From NCBI GenBank assembly GCA_964016885.1, contig OZ024740.1:89652001-89716000 (forward strand): a stretch of DNA of 64,000 nucleotides, given 5' to 3'. The notes beneath the pieces were generated by a model that saw only the letters and a list, made by a program, of their open reading frames with translations, had not been told where the DNA came from and made no database searches. The translations under genes were made by a program, and so were the position numbers. The DNA is from Eledone cirrhosa. Taxonomy: Eukaryota. Positions 7,960 to 49,799 of the stretch are shown piece by piece (the stretch's first letter is position 1; each line of letters starts with the position of its first letter).

Positions 7960-9050
7960 TGGTGTCATCTACCTCCAGAACACCTAAATATGTGTATCCA
8001 TCTTCAGTGTGAATTTCCTTTATCATCTCATCTATTGGTACCTAGATTCCGTTGCTTCTGCTCAATATACCCAGGTTACTCACTAGGACTCCACACTTGT
8101 TAACACCAAATTCCATACATATATCATTGCTGAAAATACGGACAGTGTCAACAAGTACATGCAACTCCTCTCTCTTCCCAAAGTGTTTAAGATCGTCCAT
8201 GAAGGGGAGGTGCTTGATGGTAAGCTCTCCTCTTCTCAGCTTGTATCCTGCTCTCACTTTTCGCAATATGACGGACAGAGATATCAGGGTAAGGACAAAC
8301 AACAAAGACGACAAACTATCTCCCTGGAAGTTACCTCTCTTGATCTTCAGGCCTCCAAAGAATTATCCACCTGATTTTAGCTCTTCATACTTTTAATCAA
8401 TAGCTGTCTGATGTTGTATGCCACCTTGAATATATCTAGGCTTTTTGGTTATCCAAGAAGAGTTACCATGTCGAATGCCTTTTTGTAGTCTATCCATCCC
8501 ATGGCAAGACCAGTGTGTCTCTTCTTGCAATCCCTCATTACCATCTTATCAAAAGTAACTGGTCTTTTTTACCACGGGACTTCTTTCGGCATACTTTCTG
8601 TTCGTCCGGTAACAAATTGTTTATGTGGCGGTGAAGGTAGATTTCCTCAGACACAATGCTTGTTAACAGTTTCCACATTACGGACAGACATGTGATAGGC
8701 CTACAGTTGGTAACATCATTACCCTTGATTTGGTCTTTCATTACCAGAACTGTGGTACCTTTGTCAACCACTCTGGTACTTCACCCGACATCAAGCAATC
8801 ATTGAACATAGTTGTCATTTTCGGGTGGAGGGATGTTATATTTGTAATCCAATACCCTTGCACACCATCTGAGCCTAGTGATTTCCAGTTGCTTATTTTT
8901 TTAGCCTGCCCTTTATGAGTTTCAACTGTGATACTCAAATCAGGTTGTTGGTGTGCTTGTTCACTAATCTCCTTTTGAACTGTCTTAATCCACTCTGCCT
9001 GGTCATTATGTTCAACATCCTGCTCCCATATTCCTCTCCAGAAAATCTTA
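7960..9050 (-). mobile_element. R4/Dong-type RLE LINE, RT fragment (same family as 15379-17933)
   Basis: [44 protein letters not shown] and YTYLG; bounded by (TAT)n at 9052-9068. Confidence 0.88.
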
Positions 9051-9068
9051 GTATTATTATTATTATTA

Positions 9069-10694
9069 CAGTTTCATTTATCTTGCTTTATGTTCATACG
9101 AGTTATCACCAAGTCACAACCAGTGACCTCAAGAGACAACAAGGTCCGCCAGGTTCAAGAAAGAACATACATACTCACACATGCATCTTTAGTGTTTAGA
9201 CTTGTGATGTAATTATATTGACAGTATCTTCTTAGTATATGGGCAGTTCCCATTAGTACTATCTTTTGTATTTCTCCTATACGCGGGTTTCCTGGGATTT
9301 GCGATAAGTAATCATTATACCCCTTAGGTATCATTCCCAGAGCGTCTACAACCACTGGTATTGTTTTAGTTCTCAATTTCCACATTTTTCCAGTATCTAT
9401 CTCCAGGTCCTTATACTTGCTCAATTTTTCTAATGTTTTTATAGATACATTCTTGTCTATTGGAACGGACATATCAATTAGCAGGCATACCCTCCTTTTA
9501 AAGTCCTTCAATATTATATCAGGTCTATTTGCATCTATTTTTCGGTCTGTTTGGATGGTAAAGTTCCACAAGATTGAGATGTGATCTTTTTCAAGTATGG
9601 GAGGTGGTTGATACTCCCACCAATTCTTTTGATGGGGCAGGTCAAAATGCTTACACATTATCCAATGTATGTATTGTGCAGCTCTGTCATGCCTGTTTAG
9701 GTATTCGGTTGGAGCTATAGGACTGCACATTGAAATTATATGGTCAATCGTCTCTGGTTGTTTTTTGCGTACACAGCATAATGGGCTGCATCCATTTTTT
9801 ATTATGTTGGCTTGGTAATTTTTTGTTGGCAGACACTCATCTTGTGCTGATATAATCAGTCCTTCAGTCTCCGATTTCAGTGCAGAGGATTCCAACCACT
9901 GATGGGTTAAATGTTTGTCAACATCAGGATTGTTAGCTCGCTCTGGGTATTTTCCATACAGAGGCTTTTCTTTCCATTTCTTAACCAGTTTCTGTAGCAG
10001 TTCTTTCTTTGCAGTTACTTTTACCTGCTTTGCTTTTTCTGTGTTTTCCATTTCAGCAGTAAATGGGACTTCTGAAATTTGTAGTCCATTACTGTATCTT
10101 TGTGCATCTTTTGTAATGGAATATGATTTTTGATGCTTTCGTGTTTCAAAACGAGTTTGATCATCCAATCATGTGATTCCCTTAGATATGTAGATAATCC
10201 AATTGTTGCAGTTTTCAAGGCAATGTCTAACTGGATTAACCCACGTCCTCCTTCTTTCCTAGGGAGATATATTCTATCTATATCTGCCTTAGCATGATGC
10301 ATTATGTGCATGGTTAAGAATTTTCGAATTTTTGTATCGAGCCTACGGATCTCTGTGCTTGACCAGTTGATGACATTGTAACTGTAGGTTACTACTGGTA
10401 TGGCAAGCGTGTTTATGGCATCGATCCTATTCCTTGCATTCAATTCCGTTCTTAAGATTGCTCTTACTCTGCGGTAACATTCCTTCCTTATCCTTTACCT
10501 CATTGTTGAGTGCTTGATTCCGTCTCCTTCACAAACACCTAGATATTTGTAAGTTTTTTCTGGATCAAGTTCTCTTATCACGTTCCCCCGATCAAGATTA
10601 ATGTCTGAACTCTTCAGCAGCTTTCCTCTGGTGAACGCTGCTTTGGCGCATTTATCTAGTTCATTTGGCGCATTTATCTAGTCCATTTATCTAG
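9069..10694 (-). mobile_element. R4/Dong-type RLE LINE, second family, 5'-truncated with intact 3' end
   Basis: YKYLG, RKEGGRGL, CCHC (C..ETIDHIISMC), RHD and RLE motif RPDIIL..LIDMSVP..KLSKYKDL. The 3' UTR runs into (TAA)n. Confidence 0.9.
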
Positions 10695-48600: not shown

Positions 48601-48720
48601 CACGAGGAGGAGGGTGTTTTTGTCTACAAGTTCGTTAAAGTTTTAAACAATTTACAACTGTTATAGTGTTCAAAATGTACAATACCTTACAGAGCCGAGC
48701 CTCCGTCAACCATAGCATTC
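42697..48720 (-). mobile_element. Tx1-clade LINE copy 5, full length, least decayed, chimeric
   Basis: ORF1 48500 to ~46398 (CFRCGSKTHLRAFC). ORF2 46362 to ~42950 with APE (MTSLRIGSINARG..GDWN), RT (520 aa open piece, YADD) and CPRC..HALVQC. Flanked by (TAA)n on the plus strand. Confidence 0.95.
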
Positions 48721-49799
48721 AATAATAATAATAATAATAATAATAATAATAATAATAATAACGTTTATTGAGTAGAGATGCGCGTTTTCCTATTGATCAA
48801 CTCAAGGCTCGATCTATATTGATCTAGCCCGAATTTGGAATCAAAAGCTCGTTGGACCTCTGCTGAGAACCTACACAACTGCACATTACGAATAATAAAA
48901 GATGGTATATGTATATATATATATATAAATGAATATATATATATATATATATATATATATATATATATATATATATATATATATATATATATATATATAT
49001 ATATATATATATATATATATATATATATATATATATATATACATATATATATATATATATATATATATATATATATATATATATATATATATATATATAT
49101 ATATATATACAGATATACATATATATATAGTAATAATAATAAGTTTGAAGACATCAATCCAAAGAGGGCTCGATAAAGATAAGTATATATCAAATATATA
49201 AGAACCTGTTATTTTAATATATATATATATAATTATATAATATATATATATAACTTTTCAATCAAATTTTCGTATCATATTTTTTATTTGTTTGACCCGA
49301 ATTACTTGGTCGTTTTGTATGGCTGTGCGGATAATTGTTTAACCATCGTCTCTGTGTGTTTGGCCTTTAACGTATGTTGTAGCTCTGGTGCGTTAGAATC
49401 TATTGAGCGCTTGCCACACATCTCGGAAATTGTTTTTCGTTAATTTCCAATAGCCGAAATACGAATCTCCCTAATTTATATTTGTATTAATCCCCAGAGT
49501 CTAGCTATTGACCATTTAATTTTCTTGATTTTTATAGTTGATTCTATTGACTTCTGAATAGAAATTGTTAACTTTAAAACCATTCTGTTGAGAACTTAAT
49601 TCGTTTTGTGATATTTTGCAATTCTGCATTATTACACATACTGAATTCATCCACCAAAAATAAGGGTTGCCTCCCTTGCCGAGCCCCACGTGGGTATTGG
49701 TAACGGTCAATCCTTGGCCTGGCACTTGAACTAACACCTGTTGAGAAAGTGATCTCCCTGTTCAATCATCTTACCAAAAGCTTAGCATTATTTGTCTAA

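Follow-up and report, generated by a model that had tools for sequence, protein, structure and literature searches.

A likely Tx1-clade LINE lineage in (ATT)n microsatellites of the octopod Eledone cirrhosa, with R4/Dong-like LINEs on the opposite strand and a probable SINE partner

Among long interspersed elements (LINEs) of the L1/Tx1 group, which carry an apurinic/apyrimidinic endonuclease (APE), specificity for a microsatellite has been described for Kibi on (TC)n, Koshi on (TTC)n, and crocodilian Tx1 families on (TTCC)n and (TTTC)n (PMC4494074; PMC3812793). The targets printed for Tx1 also include Tx1D, U2, U5, and 5S RNA genes, transposons, and satellites (PMC4494074). The (TAA)n repeat is given only for Dong, including a snail Dong, in the available portions of PMC3812793, and in Bombyx mori TAA lies upstream of Dong, which there has a 5' hepatitis delta virus (HDV)-like ribozyme (PMC3774820). 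Here, a 64,000-nucleotide stretch of Eledone cirrhosa DNA (assembly GCA_964016885.1, contig OZ024740.1, forward-strand positions 89,652,001 to 89,716,000; hereafter the window) is described, in which five copies of an APE LINE, likely of the Tx1 clade and numbered 1 to 5 from left to right, lie among (ATT)n tracts together with four pieces of R4/Dong-like LINEs bearing a restriction-like endonuclease (RLE).

The convergence of distinct endonucleases on one repeated target has precedents: 28S rDNA contains both R1 and R2, and telomeric repeats harbor TRAS and SART, oriented oppositely. Keno (Tx1, APE) and Utopia (RLE), whose endonucleases are unrelated, are likewise both found on U2 small nuclear RNA genes, such that target sharing between APE and RLE elements was already known (PMC4494074; PMC4640811). 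The E. cirrhosa elements, hereafter the guild, differ from all three pairs in that their target is a dispersed microsatellite, putatively regenerated by the elements themselves, and in that nearly all sampled tracts are occupied. Octopus repeat surveys report active L1-Tx1 and Dong-R4 families (PMC13282606; PMC8967140), with recent Dong-R4 activity noted for Octopus vulgaris (PMC13282606), and the parts of these two articles examined give no targets for either group. Likewise, neither a Tx1 element on (ATT)n nor a partner for octopus short interspersed elements (SINEs) appears in the portions consulted of PMC4640811, PMC3747384, PMC4758252, PMC4824008, PMC9004415, and PMC13708176. No Tx1 family on TTA, ATT, or TAA was found in the literature covered, to which Repbase, Dfam, most subscription papers, and Figure 3 and the supplements of PMC4494074 did not belong, and an (ATT)n target for Tx1 may already be catalogued. 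What appears to be new here is the target, in a clade whose members are known to have changed from one microsatellite to another, together with a likely SINE partner and a predicted cut site.

It is probable, in our judgment, that an APE LINE, likely of the Tx1 clade, lies in (ATT)n throughout the genome in a single orientation, that R4/Dong-like LINEs take the opposite one, and that the APE LINE likely nicks at ATAAT^R and duplicates about 15 bp of target (R, purine; Y, pyrimidine; caret, nick). The 5' ends of three subfamilies were searched genome-wide, excluding the window copies, and the top 30 loci for each were taken from 1,404-2,183 first-look candidates. All 87 full-length 5' ends (29/29 per subfamily) start directly after 3-27 ATT units, in unrelated flanks. 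Upstream of these 87 tracts lie 26 3' ends of other LINEs, 8 SINE tails, 29 RLE elements on the opposite strand, and 24 other sequences, and every classified neighbor (63/63) obeys one strand rule, with LINE 3' ends and SINE tails on the same strand and RLE elements on the other. The 5' ends often adjoin the 3' end of another subfamily; these head-to-tail joins of different subfamilies are not tandem duplications, so the LINE itself must insert at the tracts, and together with the (ATT)n at 5' junctions in unrelated flanks they identify ATT as the target rather than merely a tail. At the 3' side, at least three ATT units were present in 25/29, 27/29, and 23/29 copies of the three subfamilies, and among 20 loci picked by their 3' end and extended, 14 reach a copy-5-type 5' end and 4 a copy-1-type 5' half. 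Some junctions have compound repeats next to them, for example (CTT)n(ATT)n at L074 and at L087, and these resemble microsatellite of the host.

An explanation in which the 5' (ATT)n is a co-transcribed RNA head and the 3' (ATT)n a tail, with insertion sites that need not be microsatellites, would account for the six-unit floor of the copy-5 type (9/29 have exactly six) and for the absence of 5' ATT from most apparently truncated copies. It is nonetheless very unlikely, given that 32 of 33 two-ended copies (all except L066) show no unique-sequence duplication outside the tracts even though the partner SINE makes such duplications, that the 26 joins to another LINE's 3' end often involve another subfamily, that the copy-4 type goes down to three units taken from SINE tails, and that the truncated copies L352, L358, L379, L382, and L425/L426 begin on ATT tracts.

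The association holds when the tracts themselves are the starting point. Among the first 30 (ATT)8 tracts of contig 1, 28 touch a guild element, 20 of them on both sides, a figure that may overstate overall occupancy because the flanking letters of the search pattern favor junction registers. On orientation, 47 of 48 classified sides fit the strand rule; the exception, L422, is an internal 92-bp match and not an element end. A separate exception, noted by eye among the 5'-end loci, is L237, where an RLE 3' end shares the strand but an inverted TAA/ATT tract lies in between. The initial annotation of the window had named two patterns that would speak against a targeted lineage, namely 5' flanks devoid of the repeat elsewhere in the genome and random orientation to it, and neither is what these samples contain. 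As tracts of at least four units make up 0.4% of the window, and the 3.0-Gb genome has 2,401 occurrences of (ATT)8 in ATT register against 571 of the reversed control, chance is excluded as the reason for tracts at element boundaries. Passive accumulation, tandem duplication, or assembly artefact might be invoked to explain the array, given the many local duplications and fold-backs in this genome and a few duplicate pairs in the sample (L042/L043, L425/L426, and L432/L433). This explanation is extremely improbable: divergence among the window copies is 4-25%, pieces of two RLE families are interspersed with them, the junctions are base-precise, phased, and spread over many chromosomes (precise dispersed junctions already refute it), and short-read contigs contain an element with one flank.

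R4/Dong-like RLE LINEs occupy the same tracts as the APE LINEs on the opposite strand. Their two families, A and B (40% protein identity), have a single long open reading frame (ORF) with a reverse transcriptase (RT), a CCHC motif, and a C-terminal restriction-like endonuclease motif (RPD..D..K), and their best PDB matches are R2 proteins; by architecture, similarity, and target, they are probably R4/Dong-like. Their 3' ends lie on TAA runs in 29/29 and 23/29 cases by a strict rule, the other six mostly having variant units first, and several adjoin SINE tails. Full-length 5' ends also lie on TAA, as do truncated 5' junctions, with at least three TAA units in 7/9 and 15/18 (22/27 together). 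This bears out the earlier proposal of one target for two endonuclease types, for which Keno and Utopia are the precedent. Dong of Bombyx, Anopheles, and Biomphalaria (R4 clade) resembles these families in its single RT-CCHC-RLE ORF and in lying sense to (TAA)n at both ends (PMC3812793; PMC3774820), whereas the families described here share their tracts with an APE lineage. An Rfam scan of L171, L180, and three LINE 5' loci, with no dedicated descriptor search, detected no ribozyme, the 5' HDV-like type included. At L152, an RLE-A copy lies where (TAA)n meets (TGG)n, and the sequence of that boundary recurs on either side of it, which may be a target duplication of the RLE family.

A SINE of about 180 bp provides a second view of the target. 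Its 3' end is LINE-like and consists of CCTTGTG, eight bases, AGAAA, and then ATT, and the 3' ends of LINE and SINE have in common a CUUGU loop on a stem of 3-4 bp, at the same spacing to the tail. Stem positions 1-3 are paired in 114-117 of 119 LINE contexts and 121-126 of 127 SINE contexts, and the stem covaries, with C-G in one and G-C in the other between LINE and SINE and a G-C/A-U swap between LINE subfamilies; a shared 3' tail with a conserved stem-loop, the hallmark of a stringent SINE-LINE pair, is therefore present. An Rfam scan of the truncated window copy only, which bears on a tRNA-derived head with RNA polymerase III boxes, gave no match. In crocodilians, a SINE is likewise inferred to be mobilized by Tx1 with a target preference weaker than that of the LINE (Tx1-Mar/SINEU; PMC4494074), whereas the link proposed here draws on a covarying 3' hairpin common to both elements and on the Y^ATTAT insertion site. 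The tRNA-derived octopus SINEs OR1, OR2, and OK, compared by description only, are likewise abundant short elements (cited in PMC4758252 and PMC4824008), and the portions of these two articles consulted name no partner LINE for them.

The SINE likely uses the enzymes of this LINE, as judged from the shared sequence features, in which case its duplications in unique sequence would report the LINE cut site that pure repeats hide. Most SINE copies, in contrast to those of the LINE, are dispersed: in a sample of 121 distinct copies from the loci gathered here, which is enriched for arrays, 82 precede only 1-2 ATT units, the 3' flank begins with ATTAT in 108, and a unique target duplication of 9-23 bp (median 15) is present in 57. 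In the 49 non-tandem cases, the duplicated site starts with ATTAT, and the base just before it is C or T in 47/49, compared with a 58% background (P=1.7e-9), and the upstream copy of the duplication carries ATTAT in 47-49 of 49 at each position.

On this basis, the APE would nick the AAT strand at a predicted 5'-ATAAT^R-3' site, the RNA, through its 3' end (a hairpin followed by AUU), would be primed from the nicked strand, and about 15 bp of target would be duplicated, such that each new copy would be flanked by a tract at either end. The initial annotation held that insertion regenerates the target; the SINE duplications of about 15 bp, from which we infer the same, agree with this, and would account for the five or six units, approximately, that remain 5' of a full-length LINE in a pure tract. 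Nicking by the RLE families would take place on the opposite (TTA) strand. The less choosy SINE would scatter short ATT tails over the genome, and LINEs arriving later would insert at these (SINE tails abut 8/87 LINE 5' ends, as given above), so that the guild would have produced most of the (ATT)n tracts of this genome as well as targeting them.

How the LINE comes to prefer long tracts may be answered differently. In a less likely alternative, which is compatible with the preferred explanation, the endonuclease is only loosely specific, with an L1-like T^R nick, and the preference arises from several AUU units at the 3' end of the LINE RNA, which must pair with the primer strand and arise because the transcript is processed within the flanking tract, beyond AATAAA. 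SINE copies at dispersed sites of 5-6 bp speak for this, as does an AATAAA 5-10 nt before the tract in the LINE and absent from the SINE; the nick would fall at a Y^R step, as does that of L1 at TTTT/AA (PMC1950540), and the hairpin loop between the anchoring T and S is as long as in L1, the Tx1L loop having two more residues. The pyrimidine before ATTAT, on the other hand, cannot be templated by the RNA, and some recognition at the level of DNA is therefore needed. Within the preferred explanation, in which the endonuclease recognizes a core motif, pairing of a longer AUU tail is the main candidate for the source of the long-tract preference of the LINE.

Several observations weigh against the explanation preferred here. 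At the LINE itself, 12/87 3' ends have fewer than three ATT units. Of 87 loci picked by LINE 3' ends, 54 ran off the locus, 12 have internal deletions, and 21 show apparent 5' junctions; at least three ATT units lie within 30 nt at only 5 of these 21 truncated junctions (one with a SINE fragment in between), and among the remainder three lie on 1-2 units of a guild tail, L398 has a short duplication, and the others have no ATT. Many tract-less truncated junctions adjoin element interiors, and, with internal deletions at 12/87 of the 3'-selected loci, they look like secondary deletions or insertions. The 12 units 5' of L091, followed on its 3' side by one unit and then (CTT)n, are unexplained by a 15-bp duplication, and 3' tracts are weakly longer than 5' tracts (median 13 versus 8, P=0.08). 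No empty allele was recovered: for the young copy L074, reads and contigs of four runs gave no joint that skips the element, a result that, with joints at repeats dropped, points neither way. On the side of the SINE, the hairpin stem has only 3-4 bp, its counts reflect about three independent changes, and the hairpin is missing from the minimum-energy fold of the SINE; the looser targeting of the SINE also belongs here, as an enzyme core motif alone leaves the long-tract preference of the LINE unexplained. Some LINE copies, moreover, stand at only 1-2 ATT units. The (TTA)n-specific lineage that had been proposed from the window is thus upheld by the genome-wide junctions in a weaker form, in which specificity for long tracts is not absolute and the core signal appears to be Y^ATTAT.

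One of these short-site copies is part of a chimeric tandem insertion, L066/L067 (G000:C2:160651000-160665000). The 3' half of L066 belongs to the youngest group, its 5' 3 kb are identical to L067, and its 47-bp flank is copied from L067; its 3' end lies at a two-unit ATTATT site 47 bp upstream of L067, the older copy. A simple tandem duplication and a 47-bp target duplication were both considered and rejected when sliding identity revealed the chimera. The arrangement fits a nick at a short motif with the cDNA resolved on the neighboring L067, a course of events suggested by the sequence.

Assignment of the APE LINE to the Tx1 clade is likely on architecture and similarity. The intact ORF2 of L078 encodes APE, RT, and a C-terminal CCHC (PF03372, PF00078, and PF13966), and a two-ORF layout with such an ORF2 is a feature of Tx1-clade elements, as is target-site preference, which this family also has. 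The best PDB matches of this ORF2 are human L1 ORF2, and its RT scores 248 bits (38% identity) to a Stylophora protein named 'Transposon TX1' compared with 140 bits to the human L1 RT, these scores coming from different databases and the name being automatic. Tx1 ORF1 proteins carry one or more RNA-binding domains and a CCHC knuckle rather than the L1 coiled-coil type. ORF1 of the present family has one such knuckle (CX2CX4HX4C) and no Pfam match above the cut-off; Atlas scores of 0.90-0.93 to CCHC and ZCCHC3-like RBD clusters are a lead only. Among named RT relatives, that of Argonauta hians is nearest (73%), and a 42-row RT tree joins family and Argonauta (100/100) as sister to an unnamed group (100/99). 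That tree, without labelled Tx1L, Keno, Kibi, or Koshi, gives the family no resolved place among animal L1-group rows, the Tx1-named row included, and protein searches for labelled Tx1 references yielded one Tx1-named protein and unlabelled Ciona proteins. The Tx1 and Dong labels of the initial annotation are accordingly sustained as likely, by architecture and similarity. Two differences from the Kibi/Koshi lineage are evident, in that the targets of the latter are pyrimidine repeats rather than (ATT)n (L013/L091 has (CTT)n, on the 3' side only) and in that the nearest relatives here are an unnamed group with 38-43% ORF2 identity. This large sister group (P0005-P0040 and P0316-P0368) comes from metagenome assemblies, in clusters of up to 732 members. 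In 80 metagenome loci of relatives, mostly of 21-33% identity and too distant, no ATT or TAA tract was found in the flanks.

At least four APE LINE subfamilies are present in the window, one more than the minimum of three claimed before. Relative to the copy-5 group, ORF2 differs by about 8% in copy 2, 19% in copy 3, and 24% in copy 4. Copies 1 and 2 have their ORF2 in common with copy 5 and a different 5' half; likewise, L086, L089, L092, and L094 are 95-98% alike with L078 in ORF2 and have unrelated 5' halves (5' untranslated region and ORF1), with a common breakpoint near 2272. This pattern is one of 5'-module swapping among subfamilies. All three 5' types begin with G immediately after ATT, and the youngest copies differ by 0.2-0.6%. 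At L078:6737-8001 and at L069, additional 5' variants related to copy 4 start after ATT tracts; the window thus does not contain the full set of subfamilies.

The window was mapped by tblastn and blastn, for which intact or near-intact copies at other loci of the 3.0-Gb genome served as references. Between 9053 and 48761, ten (ATT)n/(TAA)n tracts of at least five units lie at element boundaries (an interrupted tract being counted once). In agreement with the earlier description, tracts were found at nearly every boundary from 9050 to 34915 and at both ends of copy 5, all five APE copies are sense to the ATT/TTA strand (four on plus, copy 5 on minus), and all four RLE pieces, on minus, are sense to TAA; the tracts, which had been called pure, are so in general, with one AGT interruption at 15319-15378. 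From the left, an internal RLE-A piece (7947..9052, -; 86% to positions 2553-3674 of the near-full-length L180) ends without a tract in a GT repeat at 7947, where its 3' part is gone, and has its 5'-truncated end on (ATT)5 (9053..9067, +). Next come a 5'-truncated RLE-B piece with an intact 3' end (9068..10696, -; 97% to L171) and a short local duplication at 10664-10696, (ATT)6 (10697..10714, +), and copy 1 (10715..15318, +), likely of the Tx1 clade, with a complete 5' end, an internal deletion of about 1.27 kb at 13714/13715, and a 3' hairpin (15294..15306, +; 4-bp stem, loop CUUGU) just 5' of AATAAA. The interrupted (ATT)10-AGT-(ATT)9 tract (15319..15378, +) separates copy 1 from a 5'-truncated RLE-A piece with an intact 3' end (15379..17934, -; 94% to L180), which is followed by (ATT)6 (17935..17952, +) and copy 2 (17953..23369, +), with the 5' type of copy 1, deletions in ORF1, and an RVT_1 match.

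Beyond copy 2, (ATT)6 (23370..23387, +) leads to the last 430 bp of an RLE-B element (23388..23817, -), which has no tract on its 5' side; at the tract-less boundary 23817/23818, it is joined directly to copy 3 (23818..28922, +), a separate subfamily whose 5' end is lost. Then follow (ATT)5 (28923..28937, +), a SINE (28938..29110, +) that is slightly 5'-truncated and has the LINE-like 3' tail (hairpin 29087-29097), (ATT)8 (29111..29134, +), copy 4 (29135..34890, +), a further subfamily with a complete 5' end, and (ATT)8 running into (TA)n (34891..34914, +). A second SINE copy (34987..35172, -) lies outside any long tract. To the right of an unrelated Penelope-like element, copy 5 (42697..48720, -) is full length at 6.0 kb, 96% identical to the intact-ORF2 copy L078, with ORF1 at about 48500-46454 and ORF2 at about 46359-42940, both frameshifted. 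It is set between plus-strand (TAA)n tracts (42672-42695 and 48723-48761), which read on the minus strand are (ATT)8 at its 3' end (42672..42696, -) and (ATT)13 at its 5' end (48721..48761, -). The initial annotation had missed the SINE between two tracts at 28938-29110 and the Penelope-like element at 35236-42342.

The latter element, unrelated to the guild, lies in (TA)n, between it and copy 5; it has an 859-residue ORF (38148-40724) with RT-like and GIY-YIG-like motifs recognized by eye and no Pfam match, and is flanked by inverted and direct repeats that are 99.7% identical. A nested fold-back spans 49020-57554, with 49020-50866 inverted relative to 55711-57554 (98.8%) and 50849-52438 matching 52700-54289 (99.7%), and an ORF at 54813-55838 (-) resembles the GIY-YIG end of another Penelope-like element. 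Two ORFs at 5189-6713 (-) look by eye like a further Penelope-like RT, and a satellite of about 440 bp occupies 57663-59677 in two blocks of opposite orientation.

Taken as a whole, a broader picture is advanced only tentatively, namely that a previously undescribed octopod Tx1 lineage on (ATT)n drives one of the abundant SINEs of the genome via the CUUGU hairpin and, with two Dong families, builds and occupies nearly every tract as a self-renewing niche, in which the SINE would found new sites and the APE and RLE LINEs would enlarge them from opposite strands. The determinants of site specificity have been called poorly understood (PMC3812793). Few APE retrotransposons specific for a microsatellite are known, and the lineage extends their range of targets; its partner SINE gives what pure repeats normally conceal, a predicted nick site and a duplication length. 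As the same enzyme is seemingly strict in cis and loose in trans, the pair offers a system for addressing the roles of the endonuclease and of RNA-tail pairing, and young, near-intact copies make tests feasible. Finally, a partner LINE is proposed for an abundant cephalopod SINE, and the findings imply that, in genomes of this kind, an (ATT)n marker will mostly be the junction of a retrotransposon.

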